This document shows, one piece after another, positions 1,863 to 31,643 of a stretch of 64,000 nucleotides of DNA. The stretch spans positions 4,564 through 68,563 of the forward strand of contig JANQSL010000056.1 of NCBI GenBank assembly GCA_028284075.1, read 5' to 3'. Each line of letters begins with the position of its first letter. Positions within the stretch are counted from its first letter, which is position 1. Source of the stretch: Candidatus Sumerlaeia bacterium. GTDB lineage: Bacteria; Sumerlaeota; Sumerlaeia; SLMS01; JAHLLQ01. The notes beneath the pieces were generated by a model. The model saw nothing but the letters and a program-made list of their open reading frames with translations. It was not told the origin of the DNA and searched no databases. Made by a program: the position numbers and the translations under genes.

Positions 1863-1902
1863 GCCGGATGTGTCGGGTGGCAGGGCTGGCTGGCAGCTGC
1901 CA

Positions 1903-2613: not shown

Positions 2614-2796
2614 GTCGTTTGGTTTCCTGACTGCATTGCTCTTGAGACAAATTTGCCGGAAATCAGCGGATCCCGCGCACATTCGGCAACGGCTTCACCG
2701 AATTGTCGTGGCGGAGTTTTTTGTTACAGCAACGCATCTTCAGCACTTGCCCCACAATTGCATTGAAGCATGATTGTATCAATATAAGTAGTCTCC

Positions 2797-3552
2797 ATGA
2801 TGAGAATGTCAAACAGAACCGGGATTGTGAAACTGGACGGCCTTGCCGGCCGGGCGGCGCAGAGGCTTGGCACCGTCGGGGATCGCTACTGGATCATGCT
2901 AATCCTCCTTTTCACGGTGATTCTTGCGGCGCCGTTTCTGAGTGGACTTGGCTTTAATTTCCTGCTGCTGTTCGCCCTGATTTCGACCGTTTCGAGCCTG
3001 GTGAGCGGAGACAGGAATCTGCATTTGATCCTGCGTGCTCTCTCCACCCCGCTGCTTCTGTTTTTTGTTCTGGCGTTTATTGCGCCGACGAAGACCGTCA
3101 GGCTGATGGAGACGGTTCCCCGGCTTGAGGTTTTCCTCTGGACCCTTGGGATTCTTTTGATTCTCGGCTGCGGGCTACTCATTCTCATCGCTCTTTTGCA
3201 CGTTCGTGAGATTACGCCTGCAGACATTGCAGGGGTGGCGAGCCTCTACCTGTTGATCGGATTTCTCTGGGCTCACTTTTACAGTATCCTGGAATACAGT
3301 GTGCCAGGGTCGTTTTCCATGCCCGACACGGCTGACCCTTTTGCAGGAGCCTGGACCGAGCGGGACTATAATGACAAACGGCTGCTATACTATAGTTTCA
3401 TCACCCTCCTTACAGTCGGATACGGTGATATTATTCCTCAAAACTCACTGGCATCCTCCCTCGCCGTCCTCGAAGCAGTGGTGGGTCAGTTGTTTATCGT
3501 GATCGTGGTGGCCACGATTCTCTCCAAGCGGCGGAAGCACAGTTTTGCGTGA
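2797..3552 (+). CDS. Potassium channel family protein (Ion_trans_2)
   Basis: A TVGYGD selectivity-filter motif, with hydrophobic helices before and after it. Confidence 0.8.
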   Translation: MMRMSNRTGIVKLDGLAGRAAQRLGTVGDRYWIMLILLFTVILAAPFLSGLGFNFLLLFALISTVSSLVSGDRNLHLILRALSTPLLLFFVLAFIAPTKTVRLMETVPRLEVFLWTLGILLILGCGLLILIALLHVREITPADIAGVASLYLLIGFLWAHFYSILEYSVPGSFSMPDTADPFAGAWTERDYNDKRLLYYSFITLLTVGYGDIIPQNSLASSLAVLEAVVGQLFIVIVVATILSKRRKHSFA

Positions 3553-3587
3553 TCTTGCGATTATCGACCCTTGCGGAGTTTTGCCAG

Positions 3588-4802
3588 ATGCATGAAATTC
3601 TTGTTAACGACAGACGGGTTCTCATTATCAGCATCATGGTGCTCGGACTCGGCGTCTGGCTCACCGGCAGAATTCCAACGCTCAGGAAATTCAATGTTCC
3701 GGCAGCTGTGACCGGCGGTTTGATTTGCAGCGTGGCCATGGCGCTTGTGCGATGGCTGCTCCAGGTCGAAATTGTTTTTTCAGCGGATCTTCGAAACCTG
3801 CTCCTTCTTGTCTTCTTCAGCACGATCGGCCTTTCCGCAAAGGCGAAACTCCTTCTCAATGGCGGAAAAACACTCGTTGTTCTTCTCGTTCTTGCTGTCA
3901 TCTTTCTTTTTGTACAAAACGCCTGTGGTGTATTTGTTGCCGGACTCTTTGGAGTTCACCCGGCTTTCGGTCTGATGGGAGGCAGCGTTTCCTTCGCGGG
4001 CGGACACGGGACTGCAATCAGTTATGGAGATGCTTTCGCCACGAGATTTGACTTGAAAGGAACGATGGAGGTCGGAATCGCCTGTGCAACAATGGGTCTT
4101 GTGGCAGGCGGAATTGTCGGGGGGCCTCTTTCCGAGAGACTGATAAGGATACATCGTCTTGCCGGAGATCGCGGTGCCGTTTCCTATTCTCCGGGAGCGG
4201 AGGACAGCGGGAAAAGCGTTCCCGTTACCATGGATGGTATGATCCTTGCCATCTTTCTGATCACTTTGTGTCTTGGAATCGGCGAGATTTTCGGCTTCTG
4301 GCTGAAGAAGTTTGGCATGACGGTTCCGTCTTTTCTACCGGCCCTCTTCGCGGGAATTCTGATTACCAATGGCATCGATCTCCTCAGGCTTCCCGTGTCC
4401 GATTCACAGGTTAATTCCGTGAGCCTTGTCAGTGACGTCAGTCTTCAGATCTTTCTCTCCATCAGTCTGATGAGCATGCAGCTATGGACAATCGCCAATT
4501 CCCTTCTGCCATTGACAGTTCTGATGCTTCTTCAAACATTCGCGATTACTTTCTTTGCGGCGAGATTGATCTTTCGCATCATGGGGAAGGACTATGACGC
4601 GGCAGTCATTAGTGCCGGATTCGTAGGTCTCGGTCTGGGAGCAACGCCCGTAGCCATCGCCAACATGAATGCGCTGACCAAGAAATATGGTGCTTCGCCC
4701 AAGGCTTTTCTGGTCGTCCCGCTTGTGGGCGCCTTTTTCATCGACATAGTCAACAACGGCATTGTTATCCCGGTCTTTCTTGGGCTGCCGTTCTTTAAGT
4801 AG
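3588..4802 (+). CDS. gltS: Sodium/glutamate symporter GltS
   Basis: A ~400 aa polytopic protein with a GltS-family pattern. The start MHEILVNDRRVLIIS was chosen inside ORF 3549..4802. Confidence 0.8.
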   Translation: MHEILVNDRRVLIISIMVLGLGVWLTGRIPTLRKFNVPAAVTGGLICSVAMALVRWLLQVEIVFSADLRNLLLLVFFSTIGLSAKAKLLLNGGKTLVVLLVLAVIFLFVQNACGVFVAGLFGVHPAFGLMGGSVSFAGGHGTAISYGDAFATRFDLKGTMEVGIACATMGLVAGGIVGGPLSERLIRIHRLAGDRGAVSYSPGAEDSGKSVPVTMDGMILAIFLITLCLGIGEIFGFWLKKFGMTVPSFLPALFAGILITNGIDLLRLPVSDSQVNSVSLVSDVSLQIFLSISLMSMQLWTIANSLLPLTVLMLLQTFAITFFAARLIFRIMGKDYDAAVISAGFVGLGLGATPVAIANMNALTKKYGASPKAFLVVPLVGAFFIDIVNNGIVIPVFLGLPFFK

Positions 4803-6632: not shown

Positions 6633-7244
6633 ATGAAACAACTCAGGACGCATGTGATGCTGCTTTCCGTCGGCGGTATTCTCAACATCGCTCTCGGTCT
6701 TGCCATCCTCATCCTTCCACAGTTTCTCGGTCGGCAAACGCTGGCGGGTACAATTGAAACTCTCATGGCGGTGTTTTTGATTTCGACCGGGATCATTCAG
6801 GCCATTCATTTCGCGGCGGGTGGTGACAAGGATCTTCGAAGTTTCGAAATCGTTCATTCGATGGTGACACTGCTGGCCGGTATTACGATTCTTGTCGCGG
6901 CTCCGGACGGCAATCTGACCTGTACAACGATCGTTGCAACTTACTTTGGAATCAGCGCGGCTTTGCTTTTCGGAGCGGCGGTTCGCGTTCGAGGCAAATA
7001 CTACTTTCCTCATATTCTGGCCCATGGACTGTTAGCCGTGGTTCTTTCCGTTATGATCTGGGTCGTTGCCAGCGGCTTTTCCGGCCGGATGATCGCTTCA
7101 CTTATTGCCGTGCATTTTGTGGCTCGCGGAATTGTGAATTTTATGTGCGCCGAACGCGCTTTGATCGAGGCGGCCGAGGTTGCAACGGCTTCCGGTGCCG
7201 CAGCCGCTCCTGCCACGAGTGGGGCTGAGCCGGCAACAGGCTAG
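6633..7244 (+). CDS. HdeD/DUF308 family membrane protein
   Basis: A small protein of repeated hydrophobic helices with the family pattern GILNIALGLAILILPQF. Confidence 0.65.
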   Translation: MKQLRTHVMLLSVGGILNIALGLAILILPQFLGRQTLAGTIETLMAVFLISTGIIQAIHFAAGGDKDLRSFEIVHSMVTLLAGITILVAAPDGNLTCTTIVATYFGISAALLFGAAVRVRGKYYFPHILAHGLLAVVLSVMIWVVASGFSGRMIASLIAVHFVARGIVNFMCAERALIEAAEVATASGAAAAPATSGAEPATG

Positions 7245-7264
7245 AAATACCGGAGTCGATTCCG

Positions 7265-8617
7265 GTGAATTTGAGCAGGTTTTGGAATAAGGGATCTGTG
7301 CGCATGTTTCAAATGGGCGGTTTGAGAATGTCCTGGTTCAGTCAGCGGGTTCAGTTGGTGTCACTCCTGTACCTGGCGGTGGTATTGGTTGGATGTGGCG
7401 AATCCGAGCCTTCCGAAGAGACCGGTCCGCGTCCGGTCAAACTGCTGCAAGTTCAGCCGGTCGCGATGATGGTTGACAGAGAGTTTCCCGGCCGGGCGAA
7501 AGCTGTTCAGTCAGTTGACCTTTCCTTCAAGGTTTCCGGTCAGGTTACCAAACTGCTTTCGGAGGGAGTACGTGCCGCCGAAGGAGAGCTTCTCGCTGCC
7601 ATTGATCCAAGAGACTATCAAACAAGAGTTGAAGGAATTGAAGCGAATCTGGCTCAGGCCCAGGCCCAACTGACAGCCCTCAGGACCGGGGCTCGTCCTG
7701 AAGACGTGTCCCGTCTTAAATCCGCCGTCCGCGCCCGCGACGCGGAGTTCAACGAGGTTAGTGTTCGGAGACAGCGGAACAAACAACTCCTGGACGACGG
7801 AGTTGTTTCCCAGCAGGAGTACGATCAGGTGCAGGCAGAGTACGATGTTGCCGAATCCAATCTTTTGTCGGCAAAAGAAGACCTGGAGATCGGACTGAAG
7901 GGTGCCCGGGAGGAGGATATTCAGGCTCAGGAAGCGCTCATTCAGGGACTGGCGGCTCAACTCCGCGAAGCGAGCGACGCACTGGATGACACACAGCTTC
8001 ATGCCCCATTCGACGGAGAGGTGGCTGTGACCTATCCCGATAGTTTTGAGGAGGTGCAGGCGAACCAGCCCATCCTGAAGTTTCAGGACGTGTCACAGAT
8101 CAAGATCGACATCGATATCTCGGAACGGGACATGGCCACGGGAGCCTCGAGAGGAGCTTCAATTGAAGAGGTTGCGAAAGCCGTCAATGCGGTTGCGATT
8201 TTCACAGCCCTGCCGGGTCGTGAGTTCGCGGTTCAGGTAAAGTCGTTTGAGACAGAAGCGGATCCTCTCACTCAGACGTTCACCATCACACTTGTTATGA
8301 ACCAACCGGAGGGAGACCCGATTCGCCCCGGAATGAACGCCACCGTCAAGTCTCGAGCCAATCCGGCGGGACCCGACAATGAGGGGATATACATTCCTTC
8401 CGCCGCCATCTTCGCGGACTCTGATGGAACAAAGCTGGTCTGGATTGTTGAGGATGGAAAGGTGATGAAGCGGGCAATCGCCGGTGATGAAATTCTGGGG
8501 GGAAGCATGCACGTCACGGACGGGTTGCAGGCAAACGAGGTGATTGCCGTGTCGGCCGTTCAGACACTGGTAGAGGGCCAGAGGGTCCGTAAAATGACGG
8601 ATCTGAAGGAACTCTGA
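7265..8617 (+). CDS. RND efflux periplasmic adaptor subunit (membrane fusion protein)
   Basis: LVGCG lipobox, coiled-coil hairpin and beta-barrel pattern. Its stop overlaps the start of the RND pump gene. The true start may be 7304 or 7328. Confidence 0.9.
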   Translation: MNLSRFWNKGSVRMFQMGGLRMSWFSQRVQLVSLLYLAVVLVGCGESEPSEETGPRPVKLLQVQPVAMMVDREFPGRAKAVQSVDLSFKVSGQVTKLLSEGVRAAEGELLAAIDPRDYQTRVEGIEANLAQAQAQLTALRTGARPEDVSRLKSAVRARDAEFNEVSVRRQRNKQLLDDGVVSQQEYDQVQAEYDVAESNLLSAKEDLEIGLKGAREEDIQAQEALIQGLAAQLREASDALDDTQLHAPFDGEVAVTYPDSFEEVQANQPILKFQDVSQIKIDIDISERDMATGASRGASIEEVAKAVNAVAIFTALPGREFAVQVKSFETEADPLTQTFTITLVMNQPEGDPIRPGMNATVKSRANPAGPDNEGIYIPSAAIFADSDGTKLVWIVEDGKVMKRAIAGDEILGGSMHVTDGLQANEVIAVSAVQTLVEGQRVRKMTDLKEL

Positions 8618-11600
8618 TGGTTAACATTGCCGAGTTCTGCATTCGGCACAAACTCAGCACGCTGGTGCTTACGGCCGTGCTCGTCGTGGGCGGTCTGGTT
8701 GCCTATCAGGGCATGGGACGTCTGGAGGATCCCGAGTTCACGATCAAGGATGCTCTTGTCATCACGTCCTATCCGGGTGCCACCGCGGAGGAAGTGGAAC
8801 GAGAGGTCACGGACATTGTCGAGAAGGCTGTTCAGAAGCTCAGTCAGCTGGATGAGATTGAGTCGCGTTCCCAGCCGGGTCTGTCGACCATCACGGTCAC
8901 TATCAAGGATAAATACGACAAGACGACACTCCCTCAAGTCTGGGATGAGCTGAGGCGAAAAGTCAGCGATGCGGAAGGTGATTTGCCCCCGGGAGCCGGC
9001 ATGCCTTCCGTTATCGACGATTTTGGTGATGTTTTTGGGATTTTCTTTGCCGTTACGGGGGACGGGTACACTGTCAAGGAACTGGAGGACTACGCCGAGT
9101 TTTTGCAGCGTGAGTTGCTACTTGTTCAGGACGTTGCAAAAATCGATATCTTTGGAGCTCAACCGGAAGCCGTTTATATAGAACTTTTCCGCGAAAAGCT
9201 CAGCCAGTTCGGCCTTACGAAGGAGGACATTTACAAGGCGCTTTCTGACAAGAATCTCGTTGCCAATTCCGGCCGCTACAAAGTTGGCCGTGAATATATC
9301 GGACTTCGCCCAACCGGAGAATTCACTTCGGTTGAAGAGTTCGGTGAGCTTCTGATCACCGCCTACGGGGCGGAGGACGATGACCTTCGTCTCGTTTACC
9401 TGAAGGATGTCGCGCGGATTGCCAGGGAGTACGTCACTCCGCCGCAAACCATGCTTCGCATGGATGGGAAGCCTGCTGTCGGAATTGCAATTTCCACGGT
9501 CTCCGGCGGTAATGTCGTGGTGATGGGTGATGCCCTCCAGAAACGTCTTCAGGAACTGGAGACCATGCGTCCGGTCGGTATCGAGTTTCATCGGATTTCC
9601 ATTCAGTCCGAGGCGGTTACCGCAGCCATAAGTGGATTCGTTATCAGCCTTCTCGAAGCGGTTGTGATCGTTATTATCGTTCTCATGCTTTTTATGGGCC
9701 TGCGGTCCGGCATCCTGATTGGTGCCATCCTCTTTATCACGATCCTTGGCTCCTTCATTTTCATGAGTATGCAAGGGATTATGCTCGAGCGTATTTCCCT
9801 CGGTGCTTTGATCATTGCTCTGGGAATGCTGGTGGATAACGCCATTGTCGTAACCGATGGCATTCTGGTGCGGATCCAGAAGGGAGAGGAGCGTGTCAAG
9901 GCCGCCGCAGCCGTGGTTTCCCAAAACCAGATACCGCTGTTGGGCGCCACTGTCGTCGCTGTCACCGCATTCGCCGCAATCGGGACTTCTCAGGACAGCA
10001 CCGGCGAGTATTGTCGTTCATTGTTTCAGGTTATCATGATTTCCCTGCTGTTTAGCTGGGTGACGGCTGTCACCGTCACTCCCGTTCTTTGCGTCATGTT
10101 TCTTCGAGCGGATCCCGGCACCTCTCAGGAGGATCCTTACAACAAAGGGTTCTACGCAAAGTATAGAAGGTTTCTTGCCAAATGTCTGAAAATGAGATGG
10201 CCGGTATGCGTGTTGATGGTTGGCCTGCTTGTGGTTTCTCTTTTCGGTTTCAAGCAGGTGAAACAGAGTTTTTTCCCGAATTCCACGCGCCCCCAGTTCA
10301 TGATTGATTTCTGGATGCCCGAAGGGACTCACATCGAAGAAACGGCGGCGGAGGCGGCGACGGTGGAAGAGTATCTTCTTGGTGTCGAGGGCGTTGCGGG
10401 CATCACCACCGGTATCAACAAGGGACTTCCACGGTTTCTTCTGACTTACTCGCCGGAAAAGACAAATCCGGCCTATGCTTTTTTTCTCGTCTCCGTGGAT
10501 GACTACAAGCAGATCGATTCTCTGATGCAGGAGATTCAGACCGCACTGGAGACGGATTATCCTCACACGATTCCACAGGCATACAAGTTCATGCTGGGAC
10601 CGGGGGATGCTCAAAAGATTCAAATTCGCTTCATGGGGCCTGAAATCAGTGTCATCCGAGACCTTTCGGAACAGGCGACGGATATCATGCACGCGGACGG
10701 CGGTATGATCGGCATCACGACGGACGCCCGGACCATGATCAAGGATTACCGCCCGATCGTTTCCGAGGCCCAGGCACGTCGGAACGGTATCGACAGACCT
10801 GACATCGCGAAGGTCCTTCGAGAGTCCTGGGATGGAAGGCCTGTCGCTACATATCGTGAAGGCAACGAGCTTCTTTCGATCATTTCACGCGTTCCGGAAT
10901 CGGAGCGCGGAGATCTGCAGGATCTCGAGAACATGCAGATCCACAGCCCCGCTGCGGGAAAGATGATTCCCCTTCGTCAAATCGTTGCCGGCTTTGAAAC
11001 GGAATTTGTTGATTCGATCATTATGCGCAAAGATCGCACGCGGATGATTACGGCAAAGTGCAATCCACGCACAGGGCTTGCTTCCGAGGCTCTACAGCGC
11101 ATTCTCCCGCAGCTGCAGCAGATTGAAATTCCCGCCGGTTACAGAATGGAACTGGGAGGAGAGTATGAAGATTCATCCAGGGCGAAGGCAGCTCTCTTTG
11201 GCAAGGTCCCGCTCTTCCTTTTGATGATGGTGTTGATTGTCATTTTACTCTTCGATTCTCTCAGGAAACCACTCGTCATCTGGCTAACCGTTCCCCTGGC
11301 GGTTATTGGTGTGACTGTGGGTCTTCTCGGGACAAACCAGCCTTTCGGGTTTATGGCACTGCTCGGATTCATGAGCCTGACAGGCATGCTGATCAAGAAT
11401 GCGATCGTCCTGGTGGACGAAATCGGTATTCAAACGAACGGGGGACTGTCGGAATGGGATGCTGTTCTGACCGCAGGCGTGAGTCGCATGCGCCCCGTTC
11501 TCATGGCTGCTGCAACCACGGTTCTTGGGATGATTCCCCTGATTTTCGATGCATTCTTCGTCTCGATGGCAGTGACGATTATGGCAGGACTGACGTTCGC

Positions 11601-21330: not shown

Positions 21331-21753
21331 ATGATTCCCGTCACCGCTGAGTATGCTTTGCGCGCCGTTGTGTTTCTGATACAGAATCAGGATGAGTTCC
21401 ATGCTGCGTCAGCCATGAGTGAGCGAATCAGGGTTCCGGCAAGCTATCTCGTAAAGGTGCTGCAACAATTGACGCGCGCGGGTATCGTGCGCTCGCAGCG
21501 GGGTCCCGGTGGAGGGTATACTCTGGTAAAGAGTGCTGATCAAATTACAATCCACGATGTGTTCGAAGCGGTGGACTCTGTACCGGACCGAATCAAGTCC
21601 TGCCCCCTGGGCCTGAAGGGACACACGGAGCTTTGTGTTCTTCACAGGATGGTGGACAACGCCCTGCTTCAGATGGAAATTGCTTTTCGCACAACGAGCC
21701 TCCGCCAGCTTCTCGACACGGCGGACGAGATGGTTCCCTTGTGCGATCTCTAA
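21331..21753 (+). CDS. Rrf2 family transcriptional regulator (IscR/NsrR-like)
   Basis: N-terminal winged helix-turn-helix with the Rrf2 signature YALRAVVFL...GPGGGY. Cysteines lie in the C-terminal half. Confidence 0.9.
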   Translation: MIPVTAEYALRAVVFLIQNQDEFHAASAMSERIRVPASYLVKVLQQLTRAGIVRSQRGPGGGYTLVKSADQITIHDVFEAVDSVPDRIKSCPLGLKGHTELCVLHRMVDNALLQMEIAFRTTSLRQLLDTADEMVPLCDL

Positions 21754-23009
21754 GTGCCTGGCGGATCGCCGGTCGTGCCGCGGTCCGCCAGGACCGACAC
21801 CGCGATTTTCAGTATTAGTGTGTAAACCATCAAACCAAAAGCCCAGATGCCCACGGTGATCTTCCATTCCGTCACGCTGGGAAGATACTCCACAACTTCG
21901 TGCAACGTGCTCGGGATAAATCCGGGAACGATCAGTCCCATGCCTTTTTCGATCCAGATGCCCGCGAAGGTCATGAGGCAGGCTGCCGTGAGGAACGACC
22001 GGTTTCGGGTTGCCTGTGGAAGGAGAAACATTACCGCCGCGGCCACGTTGAGAAGTACGGCGCTCCAAATCCATGGAACCAGAGAGTTGTGTCCGTGAAG
22101 TCCGAAAAAGAGATAGCGCGCGGAGGCGGTATGAGAGCCGCCGCTGTAGAATTCGGTGAACAGCTCGCACAGCAGCAGGAAAATGTTGAGAAGGCACGTC
22201 ACGCGGATAATATTGAGAAGCGTACGACGAGCTCCCTCTCCGAAGCGGAGCCCGGCAAGTTTTTCAAGAACGTGAAAGGTGATGAGAATAAAGGCGGGAC
22301 CGGAGACAAAGGCCGAAGCGAGAAAGCGGGGTGCAAGCACGGCTGAGTTCCAGAGCGGCCTCCCGCCCAGTCCGCAATAAAGGAACGCCGTTATTGTGTG
22401 AATGGAGATGGCCCACACGATGGAAACGAACACGAAGGGTTTGTACCACGTCGGGTTTGGTTTCTGACGCAGGAACCGGATGTAGAGCAGGTACCCACAG
22501 ATATGCATGTTTAGAAGCAGGTAACCGTTCAGCACGATCACATCCCACGTGAGCATCGAAATGGGAAAGTTGAACCGGCCGATGAAAGGAAACAGGTGCC
22601 AGAAACGATCCGGACGGCCGAGATCAACCGTCACGAACAACAGACACACGATGATAGAGGCGATGGCAAGTAACTCGCCGACGATGGTCATGTCATGCAT
22701 GTCTTCATCGTGATAGAGATAGGCGGGAATGACCATCATGACGCCGCCCGCTGCAAGCCCCACGAAGAACGTGAAATTGGCAATGTACAGACCCCAGGAC
22801 ACGTGATCGGTCATGTTGGTGATCTGCATGCCGTTGGCGACCTGATTGGCCCAGGCATTCGCTCCCACAAGCGCGAGTGCGGTCAACAATGTCATCCATG
22901 CATAGAACAGCGGGCTTCCACTGGTGGCCTGACCGAACGAATGCAGCAGGAATCGCGGATAGCTCGTCACTTTGCGGGTGAAGCCGCCTTCATCGGCGAT
23001 GACGCTCAT
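21750..23009 (-). CDS. NrfD/PsrC-family integral membrane quinol-interacting subunit
   Basis: A ~420 aa polytopic membrane protein with NrfD-family pattern. Last gene of the cytochrome c / FeS / NrfD operon. Start MSVIADEGG. Confidence 0.85.
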   Translation of the reverse strand: MSVIADEGGFTRKVTSYPRFLLHSFGQATSGSPLFYAWMTLLTALALVGANAWANQVANGMQITNMTDHVSWGLYIANFTFFVGLAAGGVMMVIPAYLYHDEDMHDMTIVGELLAIASIIVCLLFVTVDLGRPDRFWHLFPFIGRFNFPISMLTWDVIVLNGYLLLNMHICGYLLYIRFLRQKPNPTWYKPFVFVSIVWAISIHTITAFLYCGLGGRPLWNSAVLAPRFLASAFVSGPAFILITFHVLEKLAGLRFGEGARRTLLNIIRVTCLLNIFLLLCELFTEFYSGGSHTASARYLFFGLHGHNSLVPWIWSAVLLNVAAAVMFLLPQATRNRSFLTAACLMTFAGIWIEKGMGLIVPGFIPSTLHEVVEYLPSVTEWKITVGIWAFGLMVYTLILKIAVSVLADRGTTGDPPGT

Positions 23010-23022
23010 TGTGGACTTTTTC

Positions 23023-23964
23023 CTATTCGTCGAAGAAATAGAAGAACTGAGGTTTGGTGCCAAGTTCCTCCTTCAATACAAAGACGCGCTTGTTTTCAAG
23101 GACCCAGCGAATTTCCGATTCCGGATCCAGAAGGTTGCCAAAGACCCGGGCCCCTGTCGGGCAGGCCTCAAGGCACGCCGGAAGCTTCCCCTTGCGCGTG
23201 CGATGCAGGCAGAACGTGCATTTCTCCATGACCCCTGCCGGCCGAACCCGGTTGCTCAAATATCCCTGATCAGGATTGATATCCTGACTGGGAATCTCCG
23301 GCTTCTTCCAGTTGAAGCGACGCGCATGGTATGGACAGGCTGCCTCACAGTAGCGGCAGCCAATGCACCAGTTGTAGTCAACCACGACGATGCCATCCTG
23401 TTCCTTCCATGTGGCCTCCACAGGGCAGACATGTACACAGGGCGGGTTTTCGCACTGCTGACACTGCACGGGCATGTAGAACTTGTCTTTTTGCGGAACC
23501 GGATGGTTGTAGTTGGCGTCCCCTTTCTCGAAATCGATGCCACCCTTCTCCATTTCAAACACGCGAATGTAGGACTGGTTCGTTTCGCGGTCATGATTGT
23601 TCTCGATATGACACGCCTCCGCGCACTTGCGACAGCCGATACAGATGCTGAGGTTGAGCGCGTACCCGAACTTCACTCCTTCCTTTGGGCGATAGTCGTT
23701 GATGGATACATCGACTCCATGGTCCTCGACGGCTTCCCGCTCCAGGCGTGCAAGGACTGTTTGGAGTTCGCCGGGTTTCAGTTCCTTGTAGTGTTTCTGG
23801 AGGAACTCGTCGACACTCATGTCGCTGGTCCACTCCGTGATGGGAGCGATGGCTTTCGCGAGGGCCGCCATTCCGAGCATCGCGGCACCACCCTTCAGTG
23901 CTGTGCGACGATCGAATCCGATCTTGCCGGAATCATGTTTGGGAGGCTTTGAATCTGTACTCAT
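23023..23964 (-). CDS. TAT-exported 4Fe-4S ferredoxin-type subunit (NrfC/PsrB-like)
   Basis: Twin-arginine motif DRRTALKGG and multiple CxxCxxCxxxCP clusters. Confidence 0.9.
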   Translation of the reverse strand: MSTDSKPPKHDSGKIGFDRRTALKGGAAMLGMAALAKAIAPITEWTSDMSVDEFLQKHYKELKPGELQTVLARLEREAVEDHGVDVSINDYRPKEGVKFGYALNLSICIGCRKCAEACHIENNHDRETNQSYIRVFEMEKGGIDFEKGDANYNHPVPQKDKFYMPVQCQQCENPPCVHVCPVEATWKEQDGIVVVDYNWCIGCRYCEAACPYHARRFNWKKPEIPSQDINPDQGYLSNRVRPAGVMEKCTFCLHRTRKGKLPACLEACPTGARVFGNLLDPESEIRWVLENKRVFVLKEELGTKPQFFYFFDE

Positions 23965-24608
23965 TCGCTATGTCTTTCGTTGTGATCCGAGGCATTTTGG
24001 GAGCGAATACTGATATGGCGATCTCTGGGCGGAGGAGCGGGGTACATCTGTGGAAAAGCCGGGCTGTGGGGATCGTGACACTGCACGCAGCTATTGCGTG
24101 TTCGCGGACCCAGAGTCGTGTCCCAGTATCCCGTCATGCCACCATGCGACCCGTTCTCATAGTCTCTCGCCTGAGGTCCGTGACATTGTGCGCAGAGCTG
24201 CATGGCATTCGCCCAGGGCGTGTGTGTGCCATCCGCGAGGCGGAGCTCTTCATTGTTGCCGGGATCGTGGCAGGACGCGCAAACCAGCTGTCCATGCTCG
24301 AAATTCAGGCCGAGGTGGAAGCTCTCCAGTTCCGCGGCGGATCGGACCGGGACGGCATTCGTTCGCGTTGCGTGGCATGTTGAGCAATCGGCCGTGACAG
24401 GTTCCCCGGATCCCGTCGTGAATCCCGTTTCAATAGCAGGCGAGGGACCCGGGCTGCGTGTATGAACAGGAAACCGCTGGATGGCTTCCTTTGGCTTATT
24501 CGCAGGCTCAGTACTCTGCTGGCTGGTCCCGATCGCTTGGGAGAGTACTCCCGTCAGCAGGCTAAGTGATACAATACCAGTAATCTGAAAAGCCGTCTTG
24601 CGCCTCAT
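23961..24608 (-). CDS. Tetrahaem c-type cytochrome (periplasmic)
   Basis: Signal peptide and four CxxCH motifs: CSTCH, CASCH, CAQCH and CVQCH. Overlaps the FeS gene by 4 nt. Confidence 0.85.
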   Translation of the reverse strand: MRRKTAFQITGIVSLSLLTGVLSQAIGTSQQSTEPANKPKEAIQRFPVHTRSPGPSPAIETGFTTGSGEPVTADCSTCHATRTNAVPVRSAAELESFHLGLNFEHGQLVCASCHDPGNNEELRLADGTHTPWANAMQLCAQCHGPQARDYENGSHGGMTGYWDTTLGPRTRNSCVQCHDPHSPAFPQMYPAPPPRDRHISIRSQNASDHNERHSE

Positions 24609-24670: not shown

Positions 24671-24701
24671 ATCAAGACAAATTTATCCGATTTGTCTTGA
24701 T
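24671..24701. promoter_or_regulatory. Perfect 12-7-12 inverted repeat ATCAAGACAAAT-TTATCCG-ATTTGTCTTGAT in the divergent promoter region
   Basis: Read directly from the sequence. It lies between the cytochrome c operon start (24608, minus) and the napD start (24760, plus). Confidence 0.6.
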
Positions 24702-24759: not shown

Positions 24760-25026
24760 ATGCCTGTCAGCGGCTTGGTACTAACACTTTCGGCGAACGG
24801 GGGAACTGCGGCGGAGGCAATCTCGGCTCTCAAGGCACGTCCCGAAATCGAATGCGAGGCTCCGCGAGGCAACAAACTGCCCGTTGCCGTGGATACATTG
24901 GATCGCACGAAAGATCAGGCGCTTTGGCGTTGGATCAACGAGCTGCCGGGTGTTGATTTCATCGATGTTGTCTTTATCTCGTTTCCTGAAGACGAGGATT
25001 CCCCGGAAGTGGCGGAGGCCTGCTGA
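24760..25026 (+). CDS. napD: NapD chaperone for NapA (TorD-like)
   Basis: ~88 aa NapD-like sequence ending 1 nt into napA (TGATG). RBS GGAAGG. The upstream part of ORF 24598..25026 crosses the operator region and is not coding. Confidence 0.75.
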   Translation: MPVSGLVLTLSANGGTAAEAISALKARPEIECEAPRGNKLPVAVDTLDRTKDQALWRWINELPGVDFIDVVFISFPEDEDSPEVAEAC

Positions 25027-27473
25027 TGAAACGACGGGATTTTCTCAAGCGCAGCGCGATGGCGGCGGCGGTTGCCGCAGCGGGCCCGCTGCCCGGTCAG
25101 ACGACCGTGCCGGAGTATACGGAGTCTGCTGAAGGCGATACCGGGTTGGAGTGGGAAAAAGCACCCTGTCGGTTCTGTGGAACCGGGTGTCATGTCATGG
25201 TTGGTCGAGAGAACGGAAAGGTCCGCGCCATTGCCGGTGACAGGAAAGCTGACGTGAACAAGGGCCTGCTGTGCGTAAAGGGCTATCACGTCGGCATGAT
25301 CCTCTATGGTCAGGATCGTTTACGCTATCCAATGCTGCGGAAGAATGGCGAGATGACCCGGATTTCGTGGGACGAGGCGATCGACGTTATTGCCGATCGG
25401 GTGGAAGCTGATCCCGCGGCTTTTGCCATTTATGGCAGCGGACAATGGACAATTCCCGAAGGCTATGTTGCGCAGAAATTCATGAAAGGCGGTTTGGCAA
25501 ACAACCATATCGATCCCAACGCACGACTCTGCATGGCCTCCGCGGTGACCGGTTTCATCAGTACCTATGGCGTGGACGAACCGGCGGGATGCTATCAGGA
25601 TCTGGATGAGTGCGATGTACTGATTATGTGGGGGAACAATCCGGCGGAAATGCATCCGGTTCTCTTCTCGCGCGTCGTCGACCGGCGTTCCCGCGGCGAG
25701 GAGATCCTGATGATCGATATCGGGACACGCCGCACCCGGACCACCGATCATTGTCAGCACTATCTTGAGTTCAAACCCCATACGGATCTTGCCATCGCCA
25801 ACGGCATCGCTCATCTGCTGATTAAAAACGGAACCTGGGACAAAAAGTTCGTCGAGAATCACTGTAACTTCCGGGCGGACACCGAGAAGCCAACGCTTCT
25901 CGGCAGGGAGATTACGTTCGAAGAATACAAGAAACTGGTCGAGCCGTATACCCCGGAGTACGTCGAGAAAATCTCAGGTGTTCCAGCAGAAAAAATCCGC
26001 CTCCTTGGAGATCTGTTCGGACAGCGCGATATACGGATTTGCAGCCTTTGGTGCATGGGAATGAACCAGCACACACGAGGCACAGCGATTAACAACCTCG
26101 TACACGGCGTTCATCTCTTGAGCGGGCATTTTGGCCGCCCCGGTGATGCTCCGACGAGCCTGACAGGCCAGCCTTCGGCATGCGGAACGGTCCGGGAGGT
26201 CGGAACTCTCGCGCATGCACTTCCCGGGGGACGTGTCGTTGCAAACGCCGAGCACCGGGCGGAGACGGAAAAACTCTGGAATCTTCCGGAGGGCCGCGTG
26301 AATGCCAAACCCGGATATCACACGGTTCTCATGTGGGAGAAATTTTGCACTCCAACGGAGGAAGGCGGAGATATTGGAACGATCTGGGTTCAGGTCACCA
26401 ACCCGGGACAAACTCTTCCCAACCGCCACAAGTTGTTCGAAGCGAAAAGGGATCTGAAAGACAAGTTTCTCATTGTCTCCGAAGTTTATCCGACTGCCTC
26501 GACGGAACTGGCGGACCTGGTTCTCCCCGCAGCGCTTTGGGTCGAAAAAAACGGGGTCTACGGGAATTCGGAACGGCGAACACAACAATGGTTTAAGATG
26601 GTCGAGCCTCCCGGTGAAGCCCGCGACGACTGCTGGCAGACACTCGCCGTTGCGCGACGGCTTTACGAACGAGGCTTTGAGGCAATGAAGGGGAGAGATG
26701 GCCGATTCATTTTCGATATTCGCAACGAAGATGGAAGTGAGATTCCCTATTGGAAATGGGAGCACTACTATGACACGAACGTGGACAAGGCCCTGTTCGA
26801 GGAGTACCGGCAGTTCACACGTTTAAAGCACAAAGACCTCGCACCCTACGATGAGTACGTCAGGGCGCACGGATTACGCTGGCCTGTTGTTCAGCAGCAG
26901 GACGGAACCTGGCGCGAGACGAAGTTCCGGTTTTCGGAGTTCGATGATCCCTATGTTACAAAGGGTGCGGAATTTGAATTCTACCATTCAGTTACAAAGG
27001 ACGGGCGGGCGCTGATATGGTTCCGTCCTTACGAAGAACCTCCGGAGTCTCCTGACGATGAATTCCCAATGTGGCTCTCCACGGGTCGAGTTCTTGAGCA
27101 CTGGCATACCGGCACGATGACCATGCGTGTGCCACAGCTTCGCCGTGCCATGCCCGGCGCGTATGTGGAAATGAATCCAAAGGATGCGGCACGCCAGGGT
27201 ATTGTGAACGGCGAACGCATACTTGTCGAGACGCGCCGCGGCAGCATGGAATTGCCGGTTTGGGTCGAGGGCCGGGGACATCCTCCGGAGGGCACCGTCT
27301 TTATTCCGTTTTTCGATGAGACGCTGCTTGTGAATGATTTGACCCTTGAAGCCTACGATCCTTTCTCGAAACAGCCGGACTTCAAAAAGTGCGCGGTACG
27401 GGTTCGTCGTATACCCAATGAGCCTTATCAGGAAAAGGGTTTGGCTCCGGTGAATGCGAATGCGCCAGGTTGA
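25026..27473 (+). CDS. napA: Periplasmic nitrate reductase catalytic subunit NapA
   Basis: TAT signal RRDFLK, N-terminal CRFCGTGC [4Fe-4S] motif, Mo-ligand region NARLCMASAV, 815 aa. Confidence 0.95.
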   Translation: MKRRDFLKRSAMAAAVAAAGPLPGQTTVPEYTESAEGDTGLEWEKAPCRFCGTGCHVMVGRENGKVRAIAGDRKADVNKGLLCVKGYHVGMILYGQDRLRYPMLRKNGEMTRISWDEAIDVIADRVEADPAAFAIYGSGQWTIPEGYVAQKFMKGGLANNHIDPNARLCMASAVTGFISTYGVDEPAGCYQDLDECDVLIMWGNNPAEMHPVLFSRVVDRRSRGEEILMIDIGTRRTRTTDHCQHYLEFKPHTDLAIANGIAHLLIKNGTWDKKFVENHCNFRADTEKPTLLGREITFEEYKKLVEPYTPEYVEKISGVPAEKIRLLGDLFGQRDIRICSLWCMGMNQHTRGTAINNLVHGVHLLSGHFGRPGDAPTSLTGQPSACGTVREVGTLAHALPGGRVVANAEHRAETEKLWNLPEGRVNAKPGYHTVLMWEKFCTPTEEGGDIGTIWVQVTNPGQTLPNRHKLFEAKRDLKDKFLIVSEVYPTASTELADLVLPAALWVEKNGVYGNSERRTQQWFKMVEPPGEARDDCWQTLAVARRLYERGFEAMKGRDGRFIFDIRNEDGSEIPYWKWEHYYDTNVDKALFEEYRQFTRLKHKDLAPYDEYVRAHGLRWPVVQQQDGTWRETKFRFSEFDDPYVTKGAEFEFYHSVTKDGRALIWFRPYEEPPESPDDEFPMWLSTGRVLEHWHTGTMTMRVPQLRRAMPGAYVEMNPKDAARQGIVNGERILVETRRGSMELPVWVEGRGHPPEGTVFIPFFDETLLVNDLTLEAYDPFSKQPDFKKCAVRVRRIPNEPYQEKGLAPVNANAPG

Positions 27474-28275
27474 AACTTTTTCAGACCGAACGAAGGGTAG
27501 CCGCCTTGTATTCATCGGCGTTGCGTGTGTGCTTGCGGCGTCGCTGGTGGGGTATCTTGTTGGTTTGTCGCAGGAACCATACGTTACCGCACTTCCACGC
27601 ACGACAACGTCCTACGCTCCGTCCACTGTGATGTCGGCTGTCTCTTACAGTGATATGGATGTTATGTCTGCGGGACCGAACGCCGGTTGGAAGTCCGCCA
27701 CTGTTGCGGAGCTTGCAGGGGACTCGCCTCCGCCCCCCGTCTACGAGGATCAGGAGCAACTGCTGGCCTTGAAGAAGGCATCGCTCGCGGAGCGTGCGGA
27801 AAATCGGGCATTCAACGGTGCACCTCCCCTGGTTCCTCACCCCATCGACGGCTTGATGCTTGAATCGTGCATGGCATGCCATGGCGAAGGACTCGCTCTT
27901 GGCGAAGTGCGGGCTCCACGGATGAGCCATGAATACTACACCAACTGCGTTCAGTGCCACGCGCCTCTCGGCCAGCCTTTTCAGGAGGTGGGTTTGGACA
28001 CTCCGAGTGTTTTTGTGGGATTGCGGGCGCCGCTTGAGGGAGCAAGAGCCTGGGAGGGAGCGCCGCCAATCATTCCCCATGCCACATACATGCGAAACGA
28101 TTGCATGAGTTGTCATGGCCCCGCGGGTGCACCGGGTCTTCGCACGAGCCATCCGGAACGGCATAATTGCCAGCAGTGTCATGCACCTTCCGCGGAACTT
28201 GACCAGGCGTCCATCGGCGACTTTGACGAAAGCGGATTCATGAGCATATTCGACTCGCGGAACGCCGGAAATTGA
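27454..28275 (+). CDS. napB: Tetrahaem cytochrome made of two tandem NapB-like dihaem modules
   Basis: Two repeats of the NapB pattern: GAPPLVPH...CMACHG...CVQCHA, then GAPPIIPH...CMSCHG...CQQCHA. N-terminal signal anchor. Overlaps the napA 3' end. Confidence 0.8.
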   Translation: MRMRQVETFSDRTKGSRLVFIGVACVLAASLVGYLVGLSQEPYVTALPRTTTSYAPSTVMSAVSYSDMDVMSAGPNAGWKSATVAELAGDSPPPPVYEDQEQLLALKKASLAERAENRAFNGAPPLVPHPIDGLMLESCMACHGEGLALGEVRAPRMSHEYYTNCVQCHAPLGQPFQEVGLDTPSVFVGLRAPLEGARAWEGAPPIIPHATYMRNDCMSCHGPAGAPGLRTSHPERHNCQQCHAPSAELDQASIGDFDESGFMSIFDSRNAGN

Positions 28276-28823
28276 GTTCCGCGCGCACGATCTCGCGTCG
28301 AGGATTTGTAAAGCTCGGATTCCTCCGAACGGAAGCGTCACCGGAGCCTCAGGGTTCCAGGCGGCGGATTCCGGTTCACAGACCTCCGGGTGCTGTCAGC
28401 GAAGCGGAATTTCTTTCGGGCTGCACGAAGTGCGAGAAATGCATGGATGCGTGCCCACACGATGCCATCGTTCACGCTCCGATTCGATTCCGTGAAGCGG
28501 CGGGAACCCCCACAATCGATCCATCGAATTCTCCCTGCCGAATGTGTACCGACGCACCCTGCATTCCTGTCTGCCCCGAAGGTGTTCTGCTGCACGACCG
28601 TGGAATGAAAATGGGTGAAGCCCGAATTAATATCCTGAACTGCCTCGCGCATCAGGGAACGTTCTGTTCGACCTGTGTGGAGCAATGCCCTGTCGATGGC
28701 GCCATGAGGCTCGAAGACGGAAAACCGATCATTAACTCAACCGCCTGCACGGGATGCGGTGTGTGTCAGTACATGTGTCCCGCACCTGTGAATCCGCTGA
28801 TGATTCTTGCTCGCCAAACCTGA
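28272..28823 (+). CDS. NapG/NapF-type polyferredoxin (four 4Fe-4S motifs)
   Basis: RRGFVK twin-arginine-like N-terminus and four Cys clusters (CTKCEKCMDACP, CRMCTDAPCIPVCP, C..CSTCVEQCP, CTGCGVCQYMCP). Confidence 0.8.
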   Translation: MSSARTISRRGFVKLGFLRTEASPEPQGSRRRIPVHRPPGAVSEAEFLSGCTKCEKCMDACPHDAIVHAPIRFREAAGTPTIDPSNSPCRMCTDAPCIPVCPEGVLLHDRGMKMGEARINILNCLAHQGTFCSTCVEQCPVDGAMRLEDGKPIINSTACTGCGVCQYMCPAPVNPLMILARQT

Positions 28824-28835
28824 ACCGGAGTTCCC

Positions 28836-29150
28836 ATGGCAGACGATTCACAAAGCGATGCGATTTTGCCGGAACTGGGTGATTCGGTCCTGAGGGACAG
28901 GCAAATTCACGCATTGCTGGCCGACTACGAGAGAGAAGTCAATATTCACGGAGTCCTTCTCCGGCGCGGCGCACGGAATCACACAGATGGTTCGAGCGAT
29001 CTCTCCGCCCGTGAAGCGGTCCTCCGGTTGATGGAGGGAGAAGTCAGGGGAGTCCAAATTCGTTATCTATGGGAAGGCTGTGAGTGGTGGGACACGCTAA
29101 TGCAAACGCCGGAGGGCATCCGTCTCGTGCGGATTCGCCACGAAGTCTGA
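28836..29150 (+). CDS. Hypothetical protein (104 aa)
   Basis: A compact ORF between the napG-like gene and the secretin gene. No family recognised. Confidence 0.4.
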   Translation: MADDSQSDAILPELGDSVLRDRQIHALLADYEREVNIHGVLLRRGARNHTDGSSDLSAREAVLRLMEGEVRGVQIRYLWEGCEWWDTLMQTPEGIRLVRIRHEV

Positions 29151-29200
29151 CAGATTTTGAATTCAAGGCATTCAAATTCCAGCATCGAAAGGATTGTATC

Positions 29201-30697
29201 GTGAAAACAACTCTCAGCAAGACGGTTTCCACGATAGGTGTGGTCGCGTGGCTCGTTGCGGGTACATCGGAATCAGAAGCGCAGACGCAACCGGCGGTTG
29301 CGGCAAACAACCAGGACGAGGAAATCAACATCCACCGCACGGTGGATCAGGATGCGGAGTCCTTCGCGATTCTGCGGTCCGGCGACAAGAAGGAAATCAA
29401 TCGATACGTAACCCGCGTCTATAACCTCGATCATGCGAACCCGTACGAGATCCTTCCTTATCTCCGAACCGTCGCAGCCCTTGAAAAGGGCAGTGTTATT
29501 ACCGCTTGGAATCCTCAACCCGACGGAGCTCCTCTGAGCTGGATTCAGGTTAATGTGCCCGAGTTTCAGATTCCCTACATTGATCAAGCCGTAAAGGCGT
29601 ACGATGTGCCTGGATTTGCATCCATACCGGGCGACATCAAGTTCAGCTATCGAACCCGCTATCGCGATGCATCCGATATCGCAGCCCACATTCGATCGAC
29701 GACCCTGTCGCCGGATGGACTTATTCTCGCGGATTCGGACACAAACACGATCTATGTTCAGGACTCTCCCAGTGACTTCAAGCGTGTATTGTCTCAAATT
29801 CAGTTCTATGACATTCCAGTCCCACAGATCGACATCGAAGTCACAATCATCGAACTGACGAAAGTCGATCAGACGTCTCTTGGCCTTGACTGGGATGCCT
29901 GGAAGACCGCTCTGGCAGGAAGCGGTTCTCTCTCTGCCGACAACATTCGCTCTGACACCAATACCACCCCGCAGTTTGAATCATGGAGCAGTGCATGGGA
30001 AGGCATGATTTCGCTCGATGCGACAGCCGCCGCCCGATTCCTCAACTATCTCGTCGATACGGGAGACGCCGAGGTGATGGCGCGCACGACTCTGACTATT
30101 AGCAACGGAAAAACGGTGATTCTGGGCTCGGAAACCCAGGTTCCGGAGTACGAGTATCAGTATAGCTCCGCTATCCAGGCGTCCGAACTCAAGGAGGTCG
30201 CCGACGAGCGTCAGCTTCCAACCGCAGAGGGAATGACGCTGATCGTGCACCCGAACATCGCTCTCGATACCGCCCGGCTTGAAGTCGAACTGCTCACTGT
30301 TGCTCCCGTTGCCATCGGCAAGACGGGCGATCCGATCTACTCAACACAATCCTTGCTTTCCGACCTGACGCTTTCTCAGGAACAACTCTACAAAATCGGA
30401 GGCCTGCGACGGAAGGTGGAAGCAACGGAACGCAAGGGCTTACCGCTTCTTCGCGATGTTCCTTTTTTGAAGTATCTTTTCTCGAACGAGGCGACCATTC
30501 TCCGCGACACGGAACTCTATGTTTTCCTGAAACCCACCTGGACAGCACCCCTTGTTCCCGATCTTCAGGGTATGAAGATTGACAGCACCGTCAGTGCCGA
30601 TCACGTAACCGGCATTCTTGCGGCGAATCCCAACATTGCCATGAGTCTGACGGATGCGGAGCTGCTGCAGGAATACTTCGACGCTGAAGATGATTGA
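29201..30697 (+). CDS. Secretin (GspD/PilQ/CpaC superfamily outer-membrane channel)
   Basis: Signal peptide, secretin N domains and the conserved C-terminal secretin block GLPLLRDVPFLKYLFSNEATILRDTELYVFLKPT. GTG start at 29201 after the RBS AAAGGA avoids overlap with the upstream ORF. Confidence 0.85.
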   Translation: MKTTLSKTVSTIGVVAWLVAGTSESEAQTQPAVAANNQDEEINIHRTVDQDAESFAILRSGDKKEINRYVTRVYNLDHANPYEILPYLRTVAALEKGSVITAWNPQPDGAPLSWIQVNVPEFQIPYIDQAVKAYDVPGFASIPGDIKFSYRTRYRDASDIAAHIRSTTLSPDGLILADSDTNTIYVQDSPSDFKRVLSQIQFYDIPVPQIDIEVTIIELTKVDQTSLGLDWDAWKTALAGSGSLSADNIRSDTNTTPQFESWSSAWEGMISLDATAAARFLNYLVDTGDAEVMARTTLTISNGKTVILGSETQVPEYEYQYSSAIQASELKEVADERQLPTAEGMTLIVHPNIALDTARLEVELLTVAPVAIGKTGDPIYSTQSLLSDLTLSQEQLYKIGGLRRKVEATERKGLPLLRDVPFLKYLFSNEATILRDTELYVFLKPTWTAPLVPDLQGMKIDSTVSADHVTGILAANPNIAMSLTDAELLQEYFDAEDD

Positions 30698-30725: not shown

Positions 30726-31643
30726 ATGAAGGGCCGAGTTGTTTCCGTGAATATATCTGGAGGCGGCATCCCCAAGATGCCGGTTGATACGGTTGAGGTG
30801 CTCGCAACGCATTTACAAGGCGACGGCCGAAACCACGAGAAGCACAATCGAGAATGGCGTGCCGTCTCATTGCTCGATGTGGAACAACTCGGCCGATTTC
30901 AGCAACTCGGATTTGGAGTACGGCCGGGGAGTATGGGCGAGAACCTGACAATCGAAGGAATCGACTGCCGCGAGCTGATGCCAGGCGACATCGTTGACTT
31001 TGAAAACGGCGTTCGTCTGGAAATCACAGAGCCTCGAATTCCCTGCTACGTACTCGATGGCATACATCCGACCCTTAAGGAGCATTCCTGGGGAACATGC
31101 GGGACAATGGCTCGAATTGTTTCCGGTGGAACGATTATGGCAGGAGAGACGTTTCAATTCGTCGCCAATCGTTTCACGGAATCGGAATCGTGTTGGGAAC
31201 ACACAGGAGTGATTTTTGACCGGACGGGTTCAGCAGGGAGCGATATTGACGGTCTCAAGGGAGTGCTTGGAGAAGTTGTCATCAGAGTTGTTGTGGCTGA
31301 TCAATCCCTCAATATCAGCGCGCTTCGAGAAATTGATTCGCAAATCCTGTTTGTCACAATCGATCAGAACGAAGTCTCACCGTACCTGCTGCGTGTTCTA
31401 ATCGACAGATACGTTGATGGGTTACTCATGTTTCGCACGGAGGCGGGGCGAAAAATCACCCCGTCTCCGGCGATTCTGCCGTCTACTCTTCTCGGTTCGT
31501 TTCTGGAATGTATTCATGCAGCTGATTCGAAGGAATCGCTTCTGAAAACACTGAAGCCGTCCTGGGTCACTATTTCGAATCGTCTGGCTGACTTCGCTCA
31601 TGATGACCGGGCGGAGGAGAAGGCCGCAATTTCATCGCTTTGA
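30726..31643 (+). CDS. MOSC domain protein with a C-terminal extension of unknown function
   Basis: N-terminal MOSC beta-barrel pattern with the conserved Cys, in the segment RIPCYVLDG...GTMARIVSGG. Confidence 0.7.
   Translation: MKGRVVSVNISGGGIPKMPVDTVEVLATHLQGDGRNHEKHNREWRAVSLLDVEQLGRFQQLGFGVRPGSMGENLTIEGIDCRELMPGDIVDFENGVRLEITEPRIPCYVLDGIHPTLKEHSWGTCGTMARIVSGGTIMAGETFQFVANRFTESESCWEHTGVIFDRTGSAGSDIDGLKGVLGEVVIRVVVADQSLNISALREIDSQILFVTIDQNEVSPYLLRVLIDRYVDGLLMFRTEAGRKITPSPAILPSTLLGSFLECIHAADSKESLLKTLKPSWVTISNRLADFAHDDRAEEKAAISSL

Follow-up and report, generated by a model that had tools for sequence, protein, structure and literature searches.

A tandem NapB cytochrome with four haem sites, encoded with NapA and an NrfCD-type module

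A 64-kb stretch of DNA from a Candidatus Sumerlaeia bacterium (contig JANQSL010000056.1; hereafter the window) carries, directly after the gene for the catalytic subunit of a periplasmic nitrate reductase (Nap), an open reading frame (ORF) for a cytochrome c in which the NapB core occurs twice in tandem, with four haem sites in a single chain of 273 amino acids (aa; 27454-28275, forward strand). We consider it fairly probable that this protein is the NapB-type partner of NapA in a Nap system of a kind not listed so far, in which it would act as a membrane-anchored wire of four haems, fed by an NrfCD-type module that is encoded immediately upstream in divergent orientation. A recent review of Nap (2026) lists four types of operon, napEDABC, napDAGHB, napCMADGH, as well as napAGHBFLD, and describes NapB as a dihaem protein (PMC13223375). 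Beside these four types, the cluster reported here would represent a fifth Nap architecture of broad phylogenetic distribution, its novelty lying in a NapB with four (sometimes six) haem sites and a predicted membrane anchor, and in a presumed quinol dehydrogenase that is of NrfCD type instead of NapC or NapGH.

Two NapB units in one chain

The ORF is unbroken and overlaps the 3' end of napA (25026-27473, forward strand) by 20 nucleotides. From the N-terminus to the C-terminus, its product comprises a transmembrane (TM) helix that is predicted from the sequence, a linker, NapB unit 1 (residues 114-173; nucleotides 27793-27972, forward strand) and NapB unit 2 (residues 194-247; nucleotides 28033-28194, forward strand). 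An earlier reading of this DNA, made from the sequence only, had claimed that the protein contains two successive copies of the NapB signature, PP[LI][VI]PH followed by two CxxCH motifs, and hence four haem sites. Both copies are indeed where they should be: unit 1 has PPLVPH at residues 124-129 (with H129), CMACH at 139-143, H159, and CVQCH at 165-169, and unit 2 repeats the series with PPIIPH at 204-209 (with H209), CMSCH at 217-221, H233, and CQQCH at 239-243. The two halves are 48% identical over 54 aa in BLASTP (E 1e-14), and their profiles, which were built from 80 homologues, match each other in hhalign with a probability of 99.5% (E 6e-23). A repeat of this strength lies well outside what chance would give.

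All calls of conservation and of haem ligands were made on an alignment of these 80 double-NapB homologues, in which the four CxxCH motifs and the distal histidines H129, H159, H209, and H233 are invariant; the conservation of haem ligands that the sequence-only reading had proposed to check thus extends to all eight predicted axial histidines. Because these ligands are invariant, and because both haems are bis-His in known NapB structures, the protein is predicted to hold four low-spin bis-His haems. Exactly four CxxCH motifs, with a spacing of about 26/52/22 residues, are found in 79 of the 80 aligned homologues, the remaining one having six. These data also dispose of a trivial explanation for the protein, namely that two adjacent napB genes have been joined into one through a frameshift or an overlooked stop codon in the assembly or its annotation. 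The reading frame is continuous, without any frameshift; an identical protein is present on an independent public contig; the four-haem architecture recurs in all but one of the homologues; and a hidden Markov model scan of 1.84 billion representative proteins returned 536 clusters of relatives at 50% identity (E <= 1e-30). An artefact of this kind can be considered refuted.

With regard to the identity of the two units, the whole protein matches Pfam NapB (PF03892) in two stretches with 53 bits (E 4.9e-14), and each half passes the gathering score of this family (25.1 bits) when scanned singly, half 1 with 34.3 bits and half 2 with 32.4 bits. NapB is the top family for both halves, about four orders of magnitude ahead of the next family, and for the second half no multihaem family of Pfam or NCBIfam scores above NapB. 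The notion that a tandem NapB-NapB protein with four haem sites stands in the position of napB after napA is upheld by these scores, as well as by the order of the genes. In comparisons by hhalign with a canonical NapB profile, which was obtained from a homologue search with E. coli NapB and is phylogenetically narrow, containing Enterobacterales only, half 1 matched with a probability of 98.0% (E 2.5e-13) and half 2 with a probability of 97.3% (E 2e-11). Both matches cover approximately residues 59-134 of E. coli NapB (the E. coli K-12 nap operon being the source of our reference proteins), a region that takes in the two haem motifs as well as the two distal histidines. In the joint alignment, H129 of unit 1 and H209 of unit 2 are equivalent to H68 of E. 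coli NapB, the CxxCH motifs starting at C139 and C217 to C82xxCH86, H159 and H233 to H103, and the CxxCH motifs starting at C165 and C239 to C122xxCH126. When the whole protein was compared with PDB sequences by phmmer, a single-sequence search that is too weak for this purpose, the matches to NapB were weak (E 9e-4 to 0.015), and there was one match to a multihaem chain, 6r2q, which is deposited as cystathionine beta-synthase; a Foldseek search was negative.

The known comparators are the canonical dihaem NapB proteins of E. coli, Cereibacter sphaeroides (1OGY_B), Cupriavidus necator (3ML1_B), and Haemophilus influenzae (1JNI). Each half of the window protein has in common with them, and in the same order, the distal His of PPxxPH, a CxxCH, a second distal His (S/T-H), and CxQCH. 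In contrast with canonical NapB, it has two cores per chain and consequently four haem sites, and a length of 273 aa against a precursor of about 150 aa; moreover, its cores are trimmed, since the loop of about 13 residues that leads from the distal His to the second CxxCH is missing, and the one ahead of the first CxxCH is shortened. A further difference is found at the N-terminus, where a conserved, predicted TM helix with a GxxxG motif, followed by a linker some 70 residues long, corresponds to the cleaved signal peptide of canonical NapB. On the grounds of profile, ligands, and gene position we assign the protein to the NapB superfamily, outside the canonical definition of NapB as a small, soluble, dihaem cytochrome.

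The adjacent napA encodes a catalytic subunit of 815 aa with a twin-arginine translocation (Tat) signal, of the type binding molybdenum-bis(molybdopterin guanine dinucleotide) (Mo-bisMGD) and a [4Fe-4S] cluster, which scores 905.6 bits against the NCBIfam NapA model NF010055 (cut-off 904) and is 43% identical to E. coli NapA. Its best matches in the PDB are to heterodimeric enzymes, 3ML1_A, 2NYA_A, and 1OGY_A (from C. necator, E. coli, and C. sphaeroides, respectively; 720-688 bits), ahead of the monomeric NapA of D. desulfuricans (574 bits). It also retains, as Y87, the equivalent of Tyr58, a residue conserved in heterodimeric Nap (PMC13223375), and has D76 at the position of E47. By sequence, the NapA of the window is of the heterodimeric NapAB class. 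This feature is shared with canonical NapB systems, as is the location of the NapB gene beside napA, which is constant in our survey of 80 related loci, each taken with as much as 10 kb of flanking sequence: napA adjoins double napB in all of them. A contact between double NapB and NapA would be in line with both the nearness of this NapA to heterodimeric enzymes and the presence of Y87.

These properties need to be considered also with respect to NapM, the only tetrahaem cytochrome that has been described in nap clusters, where it is accompanied by napC and/or napGH while napB is missing (PMC5317091, PMC5276818). NapM is small and periplasmic and, likewise, is encoded in clusters that do not have the dihaem NapB, so one could see in the window protein a free periplasmic shuttle like that of the napCMADGH cluster of Desulfovibrio, and not a NapB at all. 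However, both halves are NapB by profile; the NapM gene precedes napA in napCMADGH and napMADGH, whereas double napB follows it; NapG and NapH, the companions of NapM, are absent at the window cluster; and the NapA is of the heterodimeric class, not of the short monomeric class of D. desulfuricans. The identification with NapM is, therefore, very unlikely in our judgement. The features by which double NapB is set apart from NapM in this judgement are those of context, namely the gene position, the companions (neither napC nor napH), and the class of NapA, together with the NapB profile of both halves.

Distribution of double NapB and history of the duplication

A word-indexed protein search returned 734 relatives of the window protein, and nearly all of the 120 that were listed have a length of 250-290 aa. 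Some of the listed proteins are named 'cytochrome c-type protein NapB' by their sources, others 'nitrate reductase cytochrome c-type subunit' or 'diheme cytochrome c precursor', several members of the family being, in effect, mislabelled as 'diheme'. In a scan of one genome per species, at least 568 genomes encode a relative, the closest of which (49% identical to the window protein) belongs to a metagenome-assembled genome (MAG) of Candidatus Hydrogenedentes. The carriers among Planctomycetota are Pirellulales, Planctomycetales, Gemmatales, and Phycisphaerales; others belong to Verrucomicrobiota, to Myxococcota, among them Sorangium cellulosum So ce56 (a complete genome), and to Candidatus Hydrogenedentes, and one member from Gemmatimonadetes is present among the listed protein relatives.

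How often, then, did the NapB core become duplicated? Each unit 1 is nearest to the unit 1 of another protein and each unit 2 is nearest to another unit 2. Since the two units are orthologous across the family in this way, their relationships indicate that the tandem duplication is ancient and happened once, before the radiation of the family. The element that was duplicated would have been a trimmed NapB core of about 55 residues, containing in order PPxxPH, CxxCH, the distal His, and CxxCH, and its doubling would have given rise to the four-haem protein in a single step. The two units have not remained equally conserved, however, for mean identity is 65% among second halves and 53% among first halves; unit 2 is also closer to canonical NapB (39% versus 31% for unit 1). 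Because it is better conserved and more NapB-like, unit 2 is weakly favoured as the half that would dock on NapA.

The repeat has gone further in some lineages, where a third NapB core is present. Two triple-NapB proteins from public metagenomes, P0077 (336 aa) and P0247 (345 aa), have three units of PPxIPH with two CxxCH each and hence six haem sites, preceded by the same GxxxG anchor.

In the literature on tetraheme NapB, on NapB in Planctomycetes, and on NapB combined with NrfC/NrfD, we found no description of a tetrahaem or anchored NapB, which is weak evidence, given that the search covered few subscription journals. A paper on MAGs from the Oslofjord tunnel reports a cluster of multihaem cytochrome, 4Fe-4S protein, and NrfD beside nap in two MAGs of Phycisphaerales, without analysis of NapB (PMC10732223); these MAGs, OFTM8 and OFTM33, correspond to loci L028 and L008 of our survey. 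The description of a planctomycete species also mentions NapA with an Fe-S/NrfD-like partner.

Probable membrane anchoring and the proposed source of electrons

The predicted TM helix at the N-terminus of the window protein spans approximately residues 18-38 (nucleotides 27505-27567, forward strand), with R17 in front of it and the invariant G33-x-x-x-G37 at its end. A hydrophobic N-terminal segment with GxxxG is present in all 80 homologues, G33 and G37 being invariant, and follows a regular pattern in which a conserved Arg precedes the segment and G-[FY]-[FL]-V-G terminates it. In an AlphaFold2 model, residues 9-39 are helical, with a block confidence (predicted local distance difference test, pLDDT) of up to 97. 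Beyond the helix, the distance from GxxxG to the first CxxCH is 97-128 residues, in a linker that is variable and poorly conserved save for a conserved Y65/GPN..W motif. Invariant residues inside a signal peptide are unusual, and residue 39, which would stand at position -1 if signal peptidase were to cleave there, is R, Q, or D in most of the family. Because of these two properties, the invariance of G33 and G37 and the nature of residue 39, we infer that the helix is probably retained as an uncleaved signal anchor; the face formed by GxxxG would then pack against another membrane helix.

The sequence-only reading did not mention this conserved anchor and missed, in addition, a divergent module of three genes immediately upstream of the nap genes. 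The first gene of the module (23961-24608, reverse strand) encodes a tetrahaem cytochrome c of 215 aa with an N-terminal hydrophobic segment and four CxxCH motifs, which matches Pfam Paired_CXXCH_1, Cytochrome_C7, and c3_2; it has homologues in 67 of the 80 loci, and 50 of the 53 full-length homologues have four CxxCH motifs. Together with double NapB, this cytochrome is the only product of the 64-kb window with two or more CxxCH motifs. The second gene (23023-23964, reverse strand) encodes an NrfC/DsrO-like periplasmic Fe-S protein of ferredoxin type with the twin-arginine signal DRRTALKG (Pfam Fer4_11, E 6.6e-22), which scores 196.1 bits against the NCBIfam model of DsrO (cut-off 200) and also matches QrcC, TtrB, and NrfC; homologues with 57-80% identity are found in 64 of the 80 loci, 48 of them with the RR motif. 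The third gene (21750-23063, reverse strand) encodes an NrfD/DsrP-like integral membrane protein of 437 aa, the putative quinone-interacting subunit (Pfam NrfD, E 1.7e-38), with homologues 61-77% identical in 62 of the 80 loci. It scores 434.3 bits against the DsrP equivalog of NCBIfam (cut-off 350), and because this cut-off is exceeded, Nap-linked NrfD-like proteins are likely to be annotated automatically as DsrP of sulfate reduction; in the window, no dsr genes are present among the ORFs examined.

Where the sequence upstream of napA reaches 4 kb or more (55 loci, to which this count was limited), the full module is present in 54, and its orientation is divergent in 63 of 67 loci, usually at 0.4-0.9 kb from napA. 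By sequence, the module has the composition of NrfD-type systems, namely an NrfD membrane subunit, a Tat-exported poly-ferredoxin, and a periplasmic multihaem cytochrome. These are the same parts that constitute NrfBCD of E. coli, DsrJOP, and systems of the alternative complex III (ACIII) type. The present module is coupled by synteny to Nap and not to NrfA or Dsr, and its cytochrome has four haems, whereas NrfB has five and DsrJ three.

NapB usually receives its electrons from NapC, and the sequence-only reading had suggested that the double NapB might substitute for NapC and NapH, both missing from the cluster. The absence is real. E. coli NapH, used as a query, matched nothing in either the window or the 80 loci, and there is no napC in the same set, for which E. 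coli NapC gave only two weak matches (in loci L060 and L067). These two were rejected as napC, each being an ORF of about 190 aa for a tetrahaem protein beside an ORF for a pentahaem protein, in other words an nrfHA pair. Double-NapB clusters are thus locally without napC and without napGH, which is the co-occurrence that the earlier reading had advised to survey. The proposed substitution, however, fares less well, for the adjacent module is a better candidate for the role of quinol dehydrogenase, and an NrfCD-type candidate is found in all but one of the loci with sufficient upstream sequence.

In its strong form, the earlier suggestion implies that double NapB is itself a quinol dehydrogenase like NapC, NrfH, or CymA, transferring electrons from the quinol pool to NapA. 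Its topology resembles that of such proteins, with one predicted N-terminal TM helix and four c-haems facing the periplasm (in about 270 versus 200 aa), and the local lack of napC and napH fits the same idea, as does one locus, L054, that has no adjacent module. Yet there is no sequence homology with NapC, NrfH, or CymA: the protein has no match to Pfam NapC/NirT, reaches only 18 bits with NCBIfam NrfH (cut-off 134.2), and is missed by E. coli NapC. The long linker between helix and haems, moreover, which puts the first CxxCH 97-128 residues after GxxxG, would leave no haem at the membrane surface; all four haems keep ligands of the NapB bis-His type; and a dedicated NrfD-type quinone module lies next to the gene almost everywhere. 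We hold this possibility to be quite improbable, though less so for locus L054. Most likely, double NapB differs from NapC, NrfH, and CymA in receiving electrons from another complex and not from quinol.

As an aside on loci L060 and L067, their nrfH-nrfA-like pairs (at 8114-10548 and 1750-3803, respectively) lie a few kb from the nap cluster and have a pentahaem ORF of 480-580 aa, which suggests that the respective genomes carry islands for the respiration of nitrate to ammonium.

Another alternative retains the tetrahaem NapB but makes it soluble after cleavage of a Sec signal, with general periplasmic carriers, or else a bc1 complex or ACIII, as its source of electrons; the module would then serve another process or be only co-regulated. 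The signal peptide of canonical NapB is cleaved, and the window protein has a G-L-S motif at residues 37-39 which could be recognized in the same way. The NrfD-like subunit scores as DsrP, and Nap of Campylobacter jejuni is reportedly coupled to the menaquinol-cytochrome c reductase Qcr (PMC6195509). Against a soluble protein stand the two glycines, G33 and G37, which do not vary among 80 sequences drawn from several phyla, and the prevalence of R, Q, or D at position 39; against an unrelated module stands its near-universal synteny with napA and double NapB across phyla, in addition to the divergent promoter region that they share. We would rate this alternative as unlikely, with a small but real share of the probability.

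In the reading that we favour, the adjacent module would take the place of NapC and NapGH, and the GxxxG helix would hold double NapB at the cytoplasmic membrane. Menaquinol would be oxidized by the NrfD/DsrP-like membrane subunit, from which electrons would pass to the Tat-exported NrfC/DsrO-like Fe-S protein, then to the tetrahaem cytochrome c of 215 aa, and from this to the four haems of double NapB, which would deliver them to the [4Fe-4S] cluster of NapA and thence, via Mo-bisMGD, to nitrate. The extra NapB unit and the anchor would serve to lengthen the haem wire and to position it between the membrane complex and NapA. This order of electron transfer is the most likely one and is analogous to that in E. 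coli, where NrfDCB feeds NrfA. Some observations weigh against it. For the window protein itself anchoring is uncertain, since signal peptidase could cut at G37-L-S39; the match of the NrfD-like protein to the DsrP equivalog leaves room for another acceptor of electrons from the module; and locus L054 has napA and double NapB with no module within 7 kb upstream.

Periplasmic nitrate reduction driven by NapC is classically regarded as not conserving energy, while complexes of the NrfD family have been proposed elsewhere to be electrogenic or ion-translocating. With an entry point of NrfD type, respiration through Nap could conserve energy in phyla that are abundant in the environment. A bolder version of the same scheme would have the GxxxG anchor dock NapA permanently on the NrfD-type quinol dehydrogenase, forming a membrane supercomplex NrfD-NrfC-cytochrome c4-NapB2-NapA that is electrogenic or ion-translocating. 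This is a speculation to which we assign a low probability; if it were true, periplasmic nitrate reduction would conserve energy in Planctomycetota, Verrucomicrobiota, and Myxococcota. For metagenomic inference there is a further consequence, as pipelines seeking napC or napGH would score such systems as incomplete.

A candidate operator and the neighbouring genes

The module is flanked by a gene for a regulator of the Rrf2 family, NsrR/IscR-like (21331-21753, forward strand; Pfam Rrf2, E 4.3e-28), which is present in the flank of 32 of the 80 loci. The divergent promoter region of 150 bp between the module cytochrome and napD contains a perfect 12-7-12 palindrome, ATCAAGACAAAT-n7-ATTTGTCTTGAT, at 24671-24701, and a site of the form (A/T)TCAAGA-N15-19-TCTTGA(T/A) is found at the corresponding place between the genes in 12 related loci, such as L056 (at 7135) and L067 (at 7091). 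An Rrf2 gene is found in 10 of the 12 loci with the palindromic site, compared with the 32 of 80 overall. The palindrome is, in our view, a candidate for the operator to which the Rrf2 (NsrR-like) regulator would bind.

Directly 5' of napA lies a gene for a small protein of 88 aa (24760-25026, forward strand), also called with 88 aa on the public contig, which resembles the chaperone NapD. Its match to Pfam NapD is nearly full-length (profile positions 3-71 of 76) and weak (E 0.035; 14.6 bits, cut-off 28), so that the assignment to napD is a tentative one; a homologue is found immediately 5' of napA in 47 of the 80 loci. A longer version of this ORF, starting at 24598, is probably not used.

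On the other side of double napB, the next gene (28272-28823, forward strand) encodes a NapF/NapG-like poly-ferredoxin of 183 aa with Fer4 domains, whose scores with the NCBIfam models of NapG (101.9 bits) and NapF (68.2 bits) are both under the respective cut-offs. It is present in 38 of the 69 loci with downstream flank, to which counts of downstream genes are limited. Because its RRGFVKLG motif is not accompanied by a hydrophobic region, the protein is probably cytoplasmic and NapF-like. It is followed by orf104 (28836-29150, forward strand), a gene for a small conserved protein of 104 aa that lies directly 3' in 53 of the 69 loci. The orf104 product has neither a signal peptide nor Cys motifs, and its sequence contains the motif RG[VL]QIRY..W.DT...R[LI]VRI; it has no match in Pfam and NCBIfam, and a homologue search with it returned three proteins only. 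We take orf104 to be a cluster-specific accessory gene with a cytoplasmic product, possibly a maturation factor.

Locus L054, from an Aureliella MAG (6979-10968), has its own peculiarities in the same genes, for its napA has an N-terminal extension with an (HE)n repeat, its double NapB has 306 aa, and its homologue of orf104 forms the C-terminal part of an ORF of 290 aa. As to the remainder of the window, no tRNA genes were found in the 64 kb. Just downstream of the nap cluster there are, on the forward strand, a gene for a type II/III secretin (29084-30697) and a gene for a protein with a MOSC domain, a domain related to the molybdenum cofactor (30726-31643).

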